DNA of 64,000 bases, taken from assembly GCA_017505525.1 (NCBI GenBank), contig JAFVPB010000044.1, positions 12,662 to 76,661 of the forward strand. The letters run 5' to 3'. Position 1 is the stretch's first letter. The number at the start of each line of letters is the position of its first letter. The notes under the pieces were generated by a model. It was given only the letters and a program-made list of their open reading frames with translations, was not told the DNA's origin and did not search any database. Positions 840 through 18,236 of this stretch are shown piece by piece. The position numbers were made by a program, and so were the translations under genes. Source of the stretch: Clostridia bacterium. GTDB lineage: Bacteria > Bacillota > Clostridia > UMGS1883.

Positions 840-961
840 TTTACGCCTCCTCTTAATTTCTGTTTGCGATAGTGTATGCAAATGTTAAAATTGGCAAACA
901 AATCTTTTTTATTCTGGATCTTGAAATGAGTATACACAACATGAGCATACCCTGTATTTCT

Positions 962-1879
962 TTAAAAAATACTGAGTTCTAACTCTCTACTCAATATTTC
1001 TAACGCCTTAATTCCTGCACAACTATTCCCTTTGCTGTCTAATGCAGGCGAATAGATTCCTATTCCCATTCTATTTGGCACAACAGCCATTATTCCACCG
1101 CAAACACCGCTTTTCGCAGGTACACCCACAGTAATAGCAAATTCTCCGGAACCGTCATACATTCCGCAAGTCATTAACACTGCATTGATGTATGTTGCAT
1201 GCTTTTTGTCGAATAACTGCTCTCCCGTAATTGGATTCTCTCCTTTATTGGCCAAAATAAATGCTATTCTTGCCAAATCAACACATGTAACTTTTATGGA
1301 GCAAGCTCGAAAATAGCAATCAAGCACCTCCTCAGCGTCTTCATTGATAATCCCATAAGCCTTGAGCATATACGTAAGAGCCCTATTTTTGTTACCAGTA
1401 GCCTTTTCAGACATATAAACATCTTCGTCAAGATTAATATTGGAATTGCCTGCAAGTTTTCGGGTTAAATCCAATAGTCTTTGGAATTTTTCCCGATATG
1501 TTTCTCCGTCTATAAGCGTGCACAAAGCAATTGCTCCTGCATTTATCATTGGGTTGATATGCTCGCTCTTTAAATCCTGATCACTATAATTGAAAGCATC
1601 GAATGGTTTTCCCGTAGCTTCTACTCCAACAAGATTTCGAACTTCTGCTTCTCCTTTGTCTTCAAGTGCTCTAAGCAATATAATGGCCTTTACAATACTT
1701 TGCATTGTAAAACTCTTTTCATAATCTCCCACGCCATTTGTACCTTGATCAATAGAGATAGTACATATTCCAAACTCATTTGGATTAGCCTTTGCAAGTT
1801 CAGGAATATATGTAGCTACTTTGCCATTTTGTATATAAGGATAACATTCTCTTATGATGTTTTTTAATAATTTATCCAT
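962..1879 (-). CDS. glsA: glutaminase A
   Basis: 305 aa. Length and motifs (KVATYIPELA, serine-beta-lactamase-like fold motifs) are typical of GlsA. Confidence 0.85.
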   Translation of the reverse strand: MDKLLKNIIRECYPYIQNGKVATYIPELAKANPNEFGICTISIDQGTNGVGDYEKSFTMQSIVKAIILLRALEDKGEAEVRNLVGVEATGKPFDAFNYSDQDLKSEHINPMINAGAIALCTLIDGETYREKFQRLLDLTRKLAGNSNINLDEDVYMSEKATGNKNRALTYMLKAYGIINEDAEEVLDCYFRACSIKVTCVDLARIAFILANKGENPITGEQLFDKKHATYINAVLMTCGMYDGSGEFAITVGVPAKSGVCGGIMAVVPNRMGIGIYSPALDSKGNSCAGIKALEILSRELELSIF

Positions 1880-1920
1880 ATATGCTCCTCCCGTTTAGAT
1901 ATTATTCTATATGTTATTGC

Positions 1921-2100
1921 GACACATAAGGTTTAGATGCAAACCTTTCAAAGGCTTCTCCTCGAGGAGAGGCTCCGCCGCAGGCGGTGGTGAGGTGTAG
2001 ATTGCAAAAGTAATCATTATCTTTTCCACCTCATCCGAGTTGCTTCGCAACCCACCTTCCCCTCAAGGGGAAGGCTTTCTATTTTCGACATCTTTCAACA
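1921..2100. other. GC-rich run of short perfect palindromes (candidate structured RNA/leader between promoter module A and glsA)
   Basis: About 55% GC in a roughly 30% GC context. Consecutive perfect palindromes are ctcctcgaggag, ccgccgcaggcgg, ttgcttcgcaa, ccttcccctcaaggggaagg, cctttgaaagg and gtttgcatctaaac. On the plus strand the last hairpin is followed by ctttctatttt, which is terminator-like. On the minus strand the region lies between a TTGACA promoter module and the glsA start. Confidence 0.4.
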
Positions 2101-2124
2101 TATCCATATTACTCGTGTCAAGTC
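2084..2124 (-). promoter_or_regulatory. promoter/leader module copy A (TTGACA-N17-TGTTGAAAGATGTCGAAAAT), facing glsA
   Basis: The minus strand reads gacTTGACAcgagtaatatggatatgTTGAAaGaTGTCGAAaatag. It aligns with copies B and C (below) over the -35 hexamer and a direct repeat GTYGAA...GTCGAA spaced 10-11 nt. Confidence 0.45.
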
Positions 2125-2373
2125 AGGAGAACAGTGAATAATAAGAACCGTCACGAAATATAACGAAATCAAAGATTTCTATATTTCGGAGAACCTTGAT
2201 ACTCGCAAGCTCGTATTAGGACCTACTATTTCCCCCTTAATTTTTCACTGCATTTTTTCTAAACAAAATTCTTTAGAACCCGCGAGAATACTAGATTTTC
2301 TCGCTTCCGATGATATATGTAAATATAATAAATCGGCAAACTAATCTTTTAAATTGTGTGGACTTGACACGAG
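2112..2373. repeat. MITE-like element copy A (262 bp, 13-bp terminal inverted repeats CTCGTGTCAAGTC/GACTTGACACGAG) with ~74-bp internal hairpin insertion (2144-2217)
   Basis: Left end 2112-2124 and right end 2361-2373 are exact reverse complements. The interior is >90% identical to copy B except for an inserted segment (agaaccgtcacgaaatata...ctcgtatt) carrying its own 9-bp stem (cgaaatata/tatatttcg). Confidence 0.7.
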
Positions 2374-2413
2374 TTGAAACTTAACAAAAACAATCCTTGT
2401 GTCATGTCAACAA

Positions 2414-3370
2414 TTATTCACCTGCAATAACTTTCAAAATCTTACCATCTGATTTTCTAATAATTACAGACAAATCCCCGCCCGGAACAAGTTCTTTATA
2501 TCTGCTTACTATAAAACATTTCTCATCATATGTTTCATCAACTACAACAGTTGTTTTATCAATAAAATCAGCACCTTCAATTTGTAAAAAAACATCATCA
2601 GCTATAGCAATAGCCACCGCTTCACCTAACTGAAAATCTACACTTTCTCCTACCCAGCCTTCTTTTCCATAGTATCCTAATTCAAACGCATTATTTTGCA
2701 CACCTTTTTTCTGATCAGCAGTTGAATTATTTAAAGCATTATAAACTCTTAATATGGTTACAATCGCTTCTTCTACCGTGTAAGTATCTTTAGGTGCAAA
2801 CTTATTATTTCCTACGCCCTGCATAAACCCCAAATTACTTATTATCTGTATGGATGGTAAAGACCACTCTGCCATTTCATCAACATCATCATAGGAATAG
2901 TACATTTCCGTTGTAGGTAGCGGATGAACAATATTTATCATACGAACGATAATCGTTGCAGCTTCTTCTCGTGTTAGAGTTTCGTTTGGCGCAAATTCGG
3001 TTATAGATTTCCCCGCAACGATATTATGATTGTATAAATCATACACCGCATTATTAGTACAGTCATCAAAAGGTCGTTTTGCAAATGGTGCTATCGGTTG
3101 TGTTCCGCCTTTTGTCTCTTCATCATACCAATTTTCAAAATAATCAGTGGTTAATATTAAATTATATATCAATTCACAAAAAGTCTCACGCGAAATCGGT
3201 GCACTGTACAGATATGTTTCATCAACACTAATAAGACCTATTGCATCAGCAATTGAAATGCTGTTCACAGCCCAATCACTACAATCGTGCTCACTATTTG
3301 TATCTGCATAAACTACAAACGATGAGCAAATAAATGCTAAAGTGATAACCATTGCTAATATTTTTTTCAT
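2414..3370 (-). CDS. secreted protein with three N-terminal SLH (S-layer homology) repeats and a ~100-aa C-terminal domain of unknown function
   Basis: Signal peptide MKKILAMVITLAFICSSFVVYA. Three SLH-like repeats carry the W/F...G...(F)AP...I(T/S)REE(A/F) pattern (PISRETFCELIYN, TLTREEAATIIVRMIN, TYTVEEAIVTILRVYN). Confidence 0.7.
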   Translation of the reverse strand: MKKILAMVITLAFICSSFVVYADTNSEHDCSDWAVNSISIADAIGLISVDETYLYSAPISRETFCELIYNLILTTDYFENWYDEETKGGTQPIAPFAKRPFDDCTNNAVYDLYNHNIVAGKSITEFAPNETLTREEAATIIVRMINIVHPLPTTEMYYSYDDVDEMAEWSLPSIQIISNLGFMQGVGNNKFAPKDTYTVEEAIVTILRVYNALNNSTADQKKGVQNNAFELGYYGKEGWVGESVDFQLGEAVAIAIADDVFLQIEGADFIDKTTVVVDETYDEKCFIVSRYKELVPGGDLSVIIRKSDGKILKVIAGE

Positions 3371-3390
3371 AAAATATACCTTCTTTCTGC

Positions 3391-3433
3391 AGTATTCAGC
3401 ACCATTCGACAGGATTTTTACTCATGTCAAGTC
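3391..3433 (-). promoter_or_regulatory. promoter/leader module copy B facing the SLH gene
   Basis: The minus strand reads gacTTGACAtgagtaaaaatccTGTCGAATGGTGCTGAATACTgcagaaagaaggtatattttATG. The TTGACA lies inside the element-B terminal inverted repeat. The leader is homologous to copy C. Confidence 0.5.
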
Positions 3434-3606
3434 AGGAGAACAGTGAATAATAGGACCTACTATTTTTTTCCTTAATTTTTCACTGCTTTTTTCTGAACAA
3501 ATTTCTTTAGAACCCGCGAGAATACTGGATTTTCTCGCATCCGATAGTATATGTAAATATCAAAATCGGCAAACTAATCTTTTAAATTGTATTGACTTGA
3601 CACGAG
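3421..3606. repeat. MITE-like element copy B (186 bp, same 13-bp TIRs; CTCATGTCAAGTC ... GACTTGACACGAG)
   Basis: Near-identical to copy A minus the insertion. Internal 7-bp hairpin gcgagaa-N9-ttctcgc. No obvious target-site duplication. It lies between the SLH gene and the NDT-like gene. Confidence 0.7.
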
Positions 3607-3665
3607 AAAAACATATGAACTTGTAATCTTAGGATTTACCATGTTAATACAGCTTTTATAATCCA

Positions 3666-4574
3666 TTAGTTGTTTTCTGATACGCATCGTTCTGCAATTA
3701 TCGGTTCTATATCCTTAAACCCATTTTCAGATAACACATTTAGAAAATAGTTATAAATTCCTGGCACATCAAGTAGCCCTGACATTTTTATGTATATGTC
3801 AATCGTTTTTTCGATGAAATCAAATTTAACACTATCAACTGTTGCATCCGAATCAACCACTTCATGAACTTTTGAAAGCTGGCGTTGTAAAAATGGTCTA
3901 TTAGGTTTCTTTTCCGGTAATTCTGTAAATTTAAATGCCATCCGAGTAATTCGTGGTAACTCCTCTCGACTTTCCATAAACTGATGGTGAAAACGACGAT
4001 TTGAAATTGTTATTGCATCCTCAATGCGATTAAGTCTTTTTAAGATATATTCTAGTGGTTCTATACTTGACTCTGAATCTCTCTGCGCCTGTTGCAAAAT
4101 TGATGTGTCATGATTTAATTCTCCTAACACCTCATATATAGGTCCACTTTTTTTATCAAACGCTATTTCTTCTTCAGCCTTTTTAATGTCATCTCTTAAT
4201 TCTAGAACCCCTTTAGCATCGTTACAATAAAAAATAGTTCTTTGCATAATAATATCAGCAGGTAACGATGTCCCCTTTTCTGCGATCATAATTACTGGCA
4301 AACCAAGTGTATGACGAAAAGCTAGTTCGTACATAACATTAGGGTTTTTGTTAGTTAAGTTAGCTATAACCAACTCGTCTTGCGCTATCTCTGATATAAT
4401 TTGTTTTGTAATGGAACCAGGTTCGCTAATCTTATGCGATACAGAAATCTCATATTTAGATCCTAATGCTGGTACAATTGCAGCATCAATTATACCATCT
4501 ATATGCCTTCTTATTGGGTCTGCTTCATCTCCAATTGGCGTAATAATAAAACATCTTTTTTTATTTTCGCTCAT
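3666..4574 (-). CDS. cytoplasmic protein with N-terminal nucleoside 2-deoxyribosyltransferase-like (NDT/SLOG-type Rossmann) domain and ~170-aa helical C-terminal domain of unknown function
   Basis: 302 aa. The N-terminus CFIITPIGDE...DELVIANLT..NPNVMYELAFRHTLGLPVIMIAE matches the NDT-family pattern (beta1 with Gly, hydrophobic strand ending in (A/D)N, then the E-hGhA..hGhPVIhI catalytic-Glu segment). No signal peptide or TM segment. Product assignment is tentative. Confidence 0.45.
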   Translation of the reverse strand: MSENKKRCFIITPIGDEADPIRRHIDGIIDAAIVPALGSKYEISVSHKISEPGSITKQIISEIAQDELVIANLTNKNPNVMYELAFRHTLGLPVIMIAEKGTSLPADIIMQRTIFYCNDAKGVLELRDDIKKAEEEIAFDKKSGPIYEVLGELNHDTSILQQAQRDSESSIEPLEYILKRLNRIEDAITISNRRFHHQFMESREELPRITRMAFKFTELPEKKPNRPFLQRQLSKVHEVVDSDATVDSVKFDFIEKTIDIYIKMSGLLDVPGIYNYFLNVLSENGFKDIEPIIAERCVSENN

Positions 4575-4596
4575 GAAAATCTCCTCTTTTCTTTAG

Positions 4597-4640
4597 TAAT
4601 TCGACACCATTCAACATAATTCGACTTTTGTCAAGACAGG
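4597..4640 (-). promoter_or_regulatory. promoter/leader module copy C (solo TIR-like TTGACA + conserved leader) facing the NDT-like gene
   Basis: The minus strand reads cTTGACAaaagtcgaattaTGTTGAATGGTGTCGAATTACTaaagaaaagaggagattttcATG. The tgtcaagacagga segment resembles the element TIR tgtcaagtcagga. Confidence 0.5.
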
Positions 4641-4666
4641 ATTAAAAAATATTCTCTTTGCATATA

Positions 4667-5038
4667 TTACAATTTATTTCCGCATTTGGGGCAATAGTCG
4701 AACTCTTGTGTAGTTTGATATCCGCAAGTTTTACAAATTTTTACTGTTTCATATTCATTAACTATTGTTAAATCTGCATCGATAATAATAACGTCTTCCC
4801 CATTCTTTATCATTTTTCCTTTTTCTTTATCAAGAATAAAAATACTTTTGCAACAAGAAGACTGAGCATAATATTTTATATTCCATTTAAATATTGGTAT
4901 AAAAAATATACTCAGATACATATACGTCATAAAAACATTATATGTAGTATAGCTTCCGCAGTTTTTACAGATATTCATTCTTCCTGCATTTTGAATTAAT
5001 TCTTTATTTCCTTGTGATATTCCCATTATAAAAAACAT
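4667..5038 (-). CDS. small membrane-associated zinc-ribbon protein
   Basis: Two Cys pairs (CKNCGS...; CKTCG...CPKCGNKL) flank a hydrophobic segment. Last gene of the long minus-strand operon. Start may be an internal Met. Confidence 0.5.
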   Translation of the reverse strand: MFFIMGISQGNKELIQNAGRMNICKNCGSYTTYNVFMTYMYLSIFFIPIFKWNIKYYAQSSCCKSIFILDKEKGKMIKNGEDVIIIDADLTIVNEYETVKICKTCGYQTTQEFDYCPKCGNKL

Positions 5039-16707: not shown

Positions 16708-16982
16708 ATTAATAATTAAATCCTGTGATGAGAAATAGTAGCTGTGAAGCTTTTTGGAAAGCGAGCCGTCGTTGGTGTGAGGTACGGTGCAAAAAGGCAT
16801 AGTGAATGGGTCTTTGAGGAGCGAGGGCGAAAAGAGTTTCTTAGTAGTTTTCGACGTGTGTATCACGTAACAGATACAGAATATATCCATATGGAGTATT
16901 CGTTAAGAGTAAGCTTTGCTTAAACGTAGGGTGGCACCGCGATTAAAAATCGTCCCGACAGATAGTTCTGTCGGGATTTTTT
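16708..16982 (+). promoter_or_regulatory. T-box riboswitch leader (probable Trp specifier UGG) controlling trpB
   Basis: Promoter TTGACA (16672-16677)-N17-TATCAT. Stem-I elements (tgatgagaaatagta) and a candidate specifier loop ttttUGGAaag. The conserved T-box AACGTAGGGTGGCACCGCG lies at 16923-16941, and the terminator hairpin tcccgacagatagttctgtcggga plus U-run at 16953-16982. Confidence 0.8.
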
Positions 16983-17018: not shown

Positions 17019-18236
17019 ATGAAATTAGGAAATGTTGATTTTGATAACTACGCAAAAAATTATCCGTCTCCCGATGGCTTTTTCGGGAAATACGGCGGAT
17101 GCTATGTATCTGATGAATTAAAAAATGCAATGGCAGAGATTACAAAAGCTTATTATGAAATATGCAAATCACGAAAATTTATTGATGAATTGAGAAGAAT
17201 CAGAAAGGAATTTCAGGGTCGTCCCACTCCCATCACACATCTTGAAAGACTTTCAAATCAACTTGGTGGAGTGCAGATTTATGCAAAGCGCGAAGACCTT
17301 AACCACACAGGAGCGCATAAGCTTAACCACTGCATGGGCGAAGGACTTCTTGCCAAGTATATGGGAAAGAAAAAAATTATTGCAGAGACAGGCGCAGGTC
17401 AGCACGGAGTTGCTTTGGCAACAGCAGCTGCATATTTTGGCCTTGAATGCGATATTTATATGGGAAGTGTTGATATTGCAAAACAAGCTCCAAACGTTGC
17501 GCGCATGAAAATACTTGGCGCAAACGTTGTTGAAGTTAAGGAAGGACTTCAAACTCTTAAAGAAGCAGTAGATGCTGCATTTTCAGCTTATGCTAATGAA
17601 TATAAAGATGCTATTTATTGTATAGGTTCTGTTCTTGGTCCGCATCCTTTCCCTATGATGGTACGTGATTTCCAGAGTGTTGTTGGTATAGAGGCGCGCG
17701 AACAGTTTATAGAAATGACAGGCGAACTTCCTGACTCAATTGTTGCCTGTGTTGGTGGCGGCTCTAATGCAGCAGGTCTTTTTGCTGGATTTTTAAACGA
17801 CCCTGTTGATATTTATGGTGTTGAGCCTCTTGGTCTTGGAGAAAAGCTTGGGGATCATGCTGCAAGTCTTTCATTTGGTACAGAAGGTATCATGCATGGA
17901 TTTAACAGTATAATGCTTAAGGATGAAAATGGCGAGCCAGCTCCCGTATATTCTGTTGCAAGCGGACTTGACTATCCTTCGTCAGGACCCGAACATGCAT
18001 TTTTACGCGATATCGGCCGAGTTAAATATGGTTATATCGGCGACGATGAAACTATAGATGCATTCTTCCGTCTTTCACGTACAGAGGGCATAATTCCTGC
18101 TCTTGAAAGCTCACATGCGGTTGCTTATGCAATTAAACTCGCTCAGCAAATGGAACATGGTTCAATTCTTGTAAATCTCTCGGGACGCGGAGATAAAGAT
18201 ATGGACTATATTATTGAAAAATACGGTATCAGATAA
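17019..18236 (+). CDS. trpB: tryptophan synthase beta chain (stand-alone)
   Basis: 405 aa. [13 protein letters not shown], the PLP-lysine motif [11 protein letters not shown] and GGGSNA are TrpB hallmarks. No trpA or other trp genes are adjacent. Confidence 0.85.

Follow-up and report, generated by a model that had tools for sequence, protein, structure and literature searches.

What are the two similar non-coding elements that stand on either side of a gene for an SLH-domain protein in an uncultured Clostridia bacterium (GTDB lineage Bacteria; Bacillota; Clostridia; UMGS1883)? The DNA concerned, called the window below, is the whole analysed stretch of 64,000 nucleotides (nt) of contig JAFVPB010000044.1 (assembly GCA_017505525.1, positions 12,662 to 76,661 of the forward strand). 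A preliminary description, made from the letters of the sequence without database searches, had regarded the pair as transposable elements of the miniature inverted-repeat type (MITEs). We find that they belong to a dispersed and apparently previously undescribed repeat family of uncultured gut Clostridia, and we propose, with a probability of roughly 0.6, that the repeat is a portable promoter, leader and operator module which marks the borders of accessory-gene cassettes between core genes. Judged by its sequence, the module probably supplies a putative promoter, a putative hairpin leader and putative operator boxes of the Spo0A type (0A boxes).

The two elements, copies A and B, lie on the minus strand, as do all the genes around them. 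They are homologous and non-coding, with an identity of about 92%, and have three blocks in common which are 90-95% identical, so that the earlier pairing of look-alike elements at 2112-2373 and 3421-3606 was well founded. Their supposed lack of coding capacity also holds good: no conserved open reading frame (ORF) was seen in either unit, and a 22-codon ORF in copy B was rejected as a small gene because it is not kept in copy A. The ends of the unit read CTCGTGTCAAGTC and GACTTGACACGAG. The 13-nt terminal inverted repeats (TIRs), described as exact in both copies, are exact in copy A, the left TIR of copy B (CTCATGTCAAGTC) having one mismatch. With up to two mismatches CTCGTGTCAAGTC or its complement occurs at five sites in the window against an expectation of 0.48, and none of 100 shuffled sequences reached five. 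An internal 7-bp hairpin, P1, had been reported and is present in both copies. They differ by a two-hairpin module found in copy A, with a 9-bp stem, CGAAATATA/TATATTTCG, inside it; the module had been noticed as an insertion of about 74 bp at 2144-2217, of which the stem stands and the extent becomes 76 nt. The features of the two copies are these:

2112-2373, minus strand: copy A, full element with one optional module (nhmmer E = 9.6e-44 and 3.4e-8, in two pieces)
2143-2218, minus strand: optional 76-nt two-hairpin module of copy A
2282-2304, minus strand: hairpin P1 of copy A, GCGAGAA-9-TTCTCGC
2310-2339, minus strand: promoter-like site of copy A, TTGCCG-18-TATCAT (9/12 consensus matches)
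2084-2100, minus strand: two phased 0A-box-like decamers 3' of copy A, TGTTGAAAGATGTCGAA
3421-3606, minus strand: copy B, full element without the module (nhmmer E = 2.3e-57, full length)
3516-3538, minus strand: hairpin P1 of copy B, 7 bp, GCGAGAA/TTCTCGC as in copy A
3544-3572, minus strand: promoter-like site of copy B as read from the sequence, TTGCCG followed by TATACT at 15 nt or TACTAT at 17 nt
3395-3411, minus strand: two phased 0A-box-like decamers 3' of copy B, TGTCGAATGGTGCTGAA

A further TIR-like 13-mer, CTTGTGTCATGTC (two mismatches; plus strand, 2396-2408), is found just past the stop codon of the SLH gene, 22 nt from the 5' TIR of copy A and inverted with respect to it; it may be the leftover of an older element end.

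Is this a local duplication? When the exact 21-mer TGTCAAGTCAGGAGAACAGTG was scanned against 185,579 species-representative genomes it matched at least 117 stretches in at least 98 species-level assemblies, and the repeat is therefore a dispersed family. Among the matching assemblies listed, all are metagenome-assembled genomes (MAGs) of Clostridia from the guts of ruminants or other animals; their labels include Congzhengia, Ructibacterium, Candidatus Aphodoplasma, Acutalibacteraceae, Oscillospiraceae and Christensenellaceae. Further copies were located with blastn-short anchors, and the family statistics given here refer to loci collected through the 3' block. The entire unit of about 186 nt is kept across family copies, not merely the 21-mer, with a length range of 150-400 nt. 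Many 8-kb blocks contain two to four co-directed copies, and up to four occur within 7 kb. There were no matches to the element in IMG/VR contigs, PLSDB plasmids or INPHARED GenBank phages. The literature yielded no paper with the 16-mer GTCAAGTCAGGAGAAC, and a search on Clostridial MITEs gave nothing relevant. We class the family with the known small intergenic repeats of the mobile or mosaic kind; its genomic behaviour is unusual and well defined.

Read in the sense of the downstream gene, the element begins with the TIR, (ATTTTTA)CTCGTGTCAAGTC, and an AT-rich stretch, AATTTAAAAGATTAG. A promoter-like site comes next, composed of TTGCCG, a spacer of 15-18 nt and TATACT, TACTAT or TATCAT. It is followed by hairpin P1 (GCGAGAA-9-TTCTCGC), GGGTTCTAAAG and a variable A-rich linker, then by AGTAGGTCCT, zero to two optional modules and ATTATTCACTGTTCTCCTGACTTGACACGAG, which holds the second TIR. 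One to five decamers of the consensus TGTCGAAT-nn precede the Shine-Dalgarno (SD) sequence and the start codon. The complementarity of the inverted repeats continues past 13 nt, by 1-10 nt, in 61 of 98 family copies. The TIR core is almost palindromic by itself (TGTCTTGACA at 4629-4638 of the window, in the fragment called solo C below), which suggests that a dimeric DNA-binding protein might bind there; the core is also similar to a degenerate 0A box (TGTCAAG vs TGTCGAA).

At the aligned position of the promoter-like site 80% of 121 copies have at least 8/12 consensus matches, as against 19% of shuffles, and 41% have at least 9/12 (4.8% of shuffles). One variant carries at this same position TTGCAA-N17-TGaTATAAT, a perfect extended sigma-A promoter consensus. 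Truncated copies that consist of the 5' part only pass from the promoter-like site or P1 straight into a ribosome-binding site (RBS) and start codon, as expected if the 5' half is a promoter. The preliminary description had instead attributed promoters to the ends of the elements. The TTGACA of the TIR is unlikely to be a working -35, since in the CGAACTTTGTCGAA junction class the SD lies so near that no -10 would fit, and anything between 2 and 16 nt separates it from a -10-like hexamer or from the boxes; the site inside the element is the better candidate.

Hairpin P1 shows compensatory changes. In an RNAalifold analysis of 61 copies, adjacent pairs change from G-C to A-U in nine and from A-U to G-C in eight, as in the double changes that separate GCGAGAA/TTCTCGC from GCAGGAA/TTCCTGC. 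The optional module (74-76 nt) occurs in 50 copies and 37 sequence variants, with up to two in tandem, which extends to the family the nested hairpin insert first noticed in copy A. Pairing in its stem 1 is kept by different sequences (CGAAATATA/TATATTTCG vs CCCAACA/TGTTGGG), as it is in stem 2 (TTATGC/GCATAA vs TTGTGCC/GGCACAA). In 21 of 22 module variants the more stable fold is that of the gene-sense strand and not of the antisense strand, in keeping with selection that acts either on the transcript or on this strand of the DNA. A different GC-rich hairpin, GGGGCGATTCACGAATCGCCCC, was found in the linker of three copies (L033 1112-1315, L052 4189-4392 and L101 6911-7196), so the linker takes more than one kind of module. 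Locus L109 has, at about 2350-2374, a mini derivative in which two ends of about 20 nt are joined directly, promoter and leader being deleted. Two further pairings were considered and set aside: that of UUCUCCU with the downstream SD (mean probability 0.20, above 0.5 in only 7 of 36 copies), and RNA pairing between the TIRs of one copy, for which the association of the outer bases is weak (2.89 vs 2.75, p about 0.05).

What, then, are the decamers? TGTCGAA is the core consensus of the 0A box in Bacillus subtilis, and Spo0A of Clostridioides difficile recognises a similar sequence (PMC3485338). In the first 80 nt downstream of the 3' TTGACA, summed over 182 segments, there are 85 perfect TGTCGAA boxes on the sense strand and none on the antisense strand. 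Their density of 5.8 per kb compares with a background of 0.114 per kb, a 51-fold enrichment; these segments make up 0.86% of the sequence, yet account for 44% of the perfect boxes in the whole data set. From one box to the next the spacing is 10 nt in 55 of 78 cases, 20 nt in 14 and 30 nt in four. Spo0A~P binds tandem boxes in 10-bp register at abrB.

The elements are placed between genes in a regular manner. Neighbours in the same sense were found downstream in 79 of 90 cases and upstream in 85 of 88; from the upstream stop codon to the element the median distance is 28 nt, and an SD-supported start codon follows the element end at a median of about 50 nt. The 142 downstream genes match 106 Pfam families, a spread that indicates generic accessory cargo rather than a functionally related regulon; among them are Bro-N, RhuM, AbiEii-like ATPases, Phd antitoxins, CAT, MFS transporters, esterases, peptidases and many small membrane proteins. 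Arrays are polar: a 3' fragment opens them, full copies part the genes and a 5' fragment often closes them. The solo 3' fragment (T-run, CCTGACTTGACACGAG and boxes) stands first in 25 of 27 loci (p about 3e-6, binomial), and 5'-only fragments stand last in 14 of 19. At other loci, solo fragments stand beside ordinary genes that point the same way. One gene was seen in different species behind a solo fragment or a full copy, with different element variants then following. Between assemblies, homology breaks within 25 nt of the end of the 3' TIR (TTGACA) in 21% of cases against 1.3% expected, and at the 5' TIR in 7% against 0.6%. In all, the family is old, conserved and oriented, and it behaves as a gene-cassette junction.

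The window contains one such array, in the order solo C, a gene for a protein of 302 amino acids, copy B, the SLH gene, copy A, a GC-rich hairpin repeat, a glutaminase gene, the partial copy D and the gene for IMS (DNA polymerase IV). Its parts, apart from those given above, are the following:

859-4666, minus strand: inserted block, a three-gene accessory cassette array missing from related genomes
4667-5038, minus strand: Zn-ribbon protein, the core gene before the array
4627-4666, minus strand: solo C, a 3'-end fragment only (T-run and CCTGTCTTGACA), with one mismatch to the family core
4600-4626, minus strand: three phased 0A-box-like decamers after solo C, GTCGAAT TAT GTTGAAT GGT GTCGAAT
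3666-4574, minus strand: cassette gene 1, 302 amino acids, with a weakly TIR-like N-terminal domain (here the protein domain of that name; PADLOC TIR effector model, E = 1.4e-7)
2414-3370, minus strand: cassette gene 2, SLH-domain protein (Pfam PF00395, E = 5.9e-14)
962-1879, minus strand: cassette gene 3, glutaminase (Pfam PF04960, E = 2.7e-114)
842-936 (envelope), minus strand: copy D, degenerate and 5'-only (TIR remnant, AT-rich stretch, TTGCCA ... CACTAT)
1912-2078, minus strand: GC-rich multi-hairpin segment between copy A and the 5' untranslated region of the glutaminase gene, belonging to a second repeat family

Solo C begins right after the stop codon of the Zn-ribbon gene and opens the array; it accounts for the solo TIR-like end already noticed at 4627-4640. 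Copy D had escaped notice. It was found with nhmmer and the family hidden Markov model (HMM), whose positions 16-71 match at 916-862 (E = 1.5e-5); the same search of the 64-kb window gave nothing further beyond copies A, B and D. Copy D runs directly into the RBS of the resident IMS gene (start codon 839) and thereby puts promoter-like sequence before this displaced gene.

Was the block inserted? The orthologous locus in relatives was reached through homologues of the Zn-ribbon protein. Loci L126 and L127 align to the window up to 4666 and 4663, respectively, and resume at 858 and 851 (81-84% DNA identity); in both, the TAA stop codon of the Zn-ribbon gene is followed directly by the RBS and the IMS gene, that is, the site is empty and the SLH-bearing insert is missing. 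Locus L125 (82%) has only a 67-nt solo at the site (...ATATTTTTTGTTACAGTCTTGACACGAG...), and L129 (96%) has the same solo followed by a different gene. The homology of L125 and L129 to the window ends exactly after TTGACA, at window position 4629. From the empty, solo-only and different-gene states we conclude that 859-4666 is an inserted three-gene array of the type solo, full, full, 5'. The accessory insert suspected in the preliminary description thus exists, with three genes in place of two. The ends of Logan contigs, which are built from short reads, fall at 3454, 2263/2328 and 1943, as repeats would lead one to expect.

Our preferred reading of these observations is as follows. A sigma-A-type promoter, TTGCCG-N16-18-TAYYAT, situated behind the AT-rich stretch, would drive the downstream gene, and the transcript would start at the conserved 7-bp hairpin P1; a 5'-terminal hairpin stabilises mRNA in Firmicutes. 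The leader would continue with the variable linker and its zero to two self-folding modules and would close with the CACTGTTCTCCTGACTTGACA block, after which one to five decamers in 10-bp phase would precede the SD. Spo0A~P would bind these decamers downstream of the promoter, with repression as the likely effect, this being the simplest outcome for boxes that lie between promoter and SD. The conserved copies would be seams along which accessory genes enter and swap. Our guess is that cassettes are exchanged by recombination between conserved repeats and that a first insertion would take a further step.

Several points weigh against this proposal. The promoter match is moderate in the main variant, copy B having 8/12, which is under the 9-of-12 threshold of the consensus scan; that scan, applied to the entire window, was not enriched over shuffles; and the 'short' variant (14 of 121 copies) has no recognisable -10. 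The most conserved block of the element, CACTGTTCTCCTGACTTGACA, has a role that the proposal leaves unexplained; part of its apparent conservation arises because the 21-mer probe lies within it. Because every locus was found by way of the 3' block, copies which retain that block are over-represented in the census. No match to the Spo0A DNA-binding domain was obtained in the approximately 0.9 Mb of collected sequence, a sample far too small for the purpose, in which a single generic receiver-domain match was seen. Lastly, the decamers might act in RNA or bind another regulator.

Could the elements nevertheless be classical MITEs, that is, units moved from TIR to TIR by a transposase encoded elsewhere, with the promoter incidental and the orientation bias produced by selection after insertion? 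The 13-nt TIRs and their longer forms would be accounted for, as would a small, AT-rich, non-coding unit present in multiple copies in many genomes, the nested optional module, the L109 derivative that retains the two ends only, and loci L017 and L100, in which different variants of the element come after the same upstream gene and the change from one to the other falls at the 5' TIR. Such transposition should leave target-site duplications, but abutting direct repeats (0 nt, 65; 1 nt, 22; 2 nt, 9; 3 nt, 1; 4 nt, 1) are at the permuted expectation. It would not at random give an orientation that is gene-sense in about 90% or more of the copies, nor does insertion of whole units predict the half-elements found systematically at array ends. 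Copies within one assembly are as similar (identity 0.81) as copies in different species (0.80; p = 0.25), which argues against recent transposition bursts. No transposase was seen among the genes flanking the arrays examined, nor among the best 25 of the 92 Pfam families matched by the other 48 ORFs of the window, these 25 being housekeeping. No single-element pair of empty and filled orthologous sites was found either; the polymorphism seen concerns whole arrays bounded by half-elements, or variants swapped at a TIR. What survives of the MITE label, then, is its account of the TIRs, of the lack of coding capacity, of the nested module and of the association with an accessory insert, while the missing target duplication, the orientation and the behaviour at cassette junctions speak against it, and we think it quite improbable. 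Still less can be said for a structured cis-regulatory leader RNA, either a riboswitch or a protein-binding leader conserved for recognition of its ligand or protein. The compensatory changes in the hairpins, the greater stability of the gene-sense strand, the extremely conserved 3' block and the position of the element, always directly 5' of a start codon, would suit such an RNA. Yet the downstream genes are unrelated, there is little conserved structure besides P1 and one small hairpin (RNAalifold covariation term -0.65 kcal/mol), transcription probably starts only downstream of the element's 5' third, there is little support for SD sequestration, and Rfam has no match to the element at the gathering score or at E up to 10. 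This makes the leader-RNA explanation very remote.

The route by which genes enter and leave the seams may be homologous recombination or may involve a dedicated recombinase. The second option amounts to a site-specific cassette system of the integron type, in which the TGTCAAG/CTTGACA cores are the targets of a recombinase encoded in trans and the solo fragment is the attachment site; we consider it unlikely. The polar arrays with the solo at their head are what it would produce, and three lineages share one left junction up to TTGACA, followed by nothing, by one gene set or by another. Breakpoints are strongly enriched right after TTGACA, the gene content is cargo-like (Phd antitoxin, AbiEii-like ATPases, CAT, RhuM, Bro-N), and the arrays sit between core genes with no flanking mobility genes. 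Breakpoints occur in the linker too, however, and where homology stops sharply this may be no more than the edge of the conserved repeat, a picture that homologous recombination between copies would give as well. No recombinase adjoins any array start: next to solo C there is no integron integrase or attI, and the genes 5' of it are Zn-ribbon, DUF1653, TraX, DnaJ and DUF5685, with identical synteny in L125. An attC-like crossover was rejected, for the outer four nucleotides of the TIRs are not complementary across a cassette and do not covary cassette-wise (2.49 vs 2.72 expected). A more far-reaching version, to which we give tentative credence at best, holds that Gram-positive gut anaerobes have a so far unrecognised system for capturing gene cassettes and that the repeat is its module for recombination and expression. 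Circular or donor cassettes with half or whole elements would enter the TGTCAAG/CTTGACA cores after the stop codons of core genes, and polar arrays would result. Each captured gene would receive its own promoter and Spo0A-controlled operator, and the terminal half-element would re-promote the displaced resident gene.

How does the family compare with known systems? In the BOX elements of Streptococcus pneumoniae (boxA - boxB(n) - boxC) the ends form inverted repeats and the end modules stimulate downstream expression (PMC3049150). The architecture, which is all that is compared here, is alike in that both are composite intergenic repeats with conserved end modules, inverted-repeat ends and a variable number of a self-folding internal module (boxB there; the 74-76-nt module, zero to two, here). 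The hosts of the present family belong to a different bacterial class, however, and its elements have a sigma-A promoter-like site and phased Spo0A-type boxes, are almost always in the gene sense, and form polar arrays at cassette junctions with half-elements at the ends. The Correia repeat-enclosed elements (CREE) of Neisseria provide promoters to neighbouring genes and are co-transcribed with them, so that their inverted repeats can pair in RNA (PMC2649163). Both they and the present elements are small, TIR-bounded and intergenic, have length variants and can supply promoters (putatively so here). CREE are confined to one genus, whereas this family occurs in at least 98 species-level genomes, and no site for IHF was identified in the family. 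CREE duplicate a TA target, and their promoters are formed at the ends; in our elements there is no target duplication and the promoter-like site is internal.

Integron attC sites, including the repeats of the chromosomal integrons of Vibrio cholerae, share with the present elements a conserved sequence, a length of 100-250 bp and inverted ends that are imperfect. The present repeats also part co-oriented, mostly single-gene accessory cassettes in chromosomal arrays, and as in integrons a distinct site is found at the head of the array. The core sites of attC are R'' (RYYYAAC) and R' (GTTRRRY), with the crossover inside R'. No RYYYAAC/GTTRRRY cores are present here, the ends being CTCGTGTCAAGTC/GACTTGACACGAG with outer bases that lack cassette-wise pairing, and the elements, unlike those of integrons, carry their own promoters (predicted). 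The decamers find their nearest counterpart in Spo0A-controlled promoters such as that of B. subtilis abrB and the early promoters of phage phi29, which have perfect TGTCGAA cores in tandem and in 10-bp phase, near or downstream of the promoter. By means of 0A boxes a mobile genome, that of phi29, can couple its own expression to host sporulation (PMC2731898). In the present case the boxes, known from sequence alone, precede many unrelated genes within a dispersed repeat.

Among the cassette genes of the window, the 302-amino-acid product had no Pfam or NCBIfam match; given the weak PADLOC match at its N-terminus it may be of the defence type. At its C-terminus the SLH-domain protein matches, below threshold, an NTF2-fold immunity-protein family (PF15631, E = 2.8e-4). 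Homologues of the glutaminase, with 89% amino-acid identity, adjoin elements in other contexts in L120 and L011.

The GC-rich segment at 1912-2078 has five or six hairpins and recurs in L067, L114, L010 and L110 with 84-88% identity over 130-170 nt (blastn); it has no Rfam match, and a folding energy of -69 kcal/mol was obtained for the 205 nt around it (1880-2084). Read on the plus strand, the first hairpin resembles an intrinsic terminator (2055-2074, then a T-run). Its 3' sub-motif, GGTTTGCATCTAAACC..., is found at many more loci. The motif AAGGTTTGCATCTAAACCTTATGTGTCGCAAT at 1915-1950 (minus strand) forms a small hairpin and recurs just 5' of genes in many loci, among them L022, L109, L083, L099, L040, L009, L059 and L056; it may be another leader module. 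Three of the Logan contigs end at 1943, within this motif. Elsewhere in the window a T-box leader (Rfam RF00230, 111.8 bits) lies at 16716-16960 on the plus strand, upstream of the ORF 17019-18236.

One conserved unit of about 190 nt fronts hundreds of unrelated accessory genes in about 100 species of little-studied Clostridia of the animal and human gut. If the proposed reading is right, it would be the default promoter and leader of the flexible genome of this clade, tied to the master sporulation regulator. For practical purposes the repeat could serve as a marker for accessory islets in MAGs, where assemblies break at these points because of the repeat copies, and, in organisms without genetic tools, as a portable expression cassette of natural origin. 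The capture system, if real, would be a functional analogue of integrons with different sites, another recombinase and built-in promoters; and should a dedicated recombinase build the polar arrays, they would represent a new mechanism of cassette capture outside the integron paradigm.

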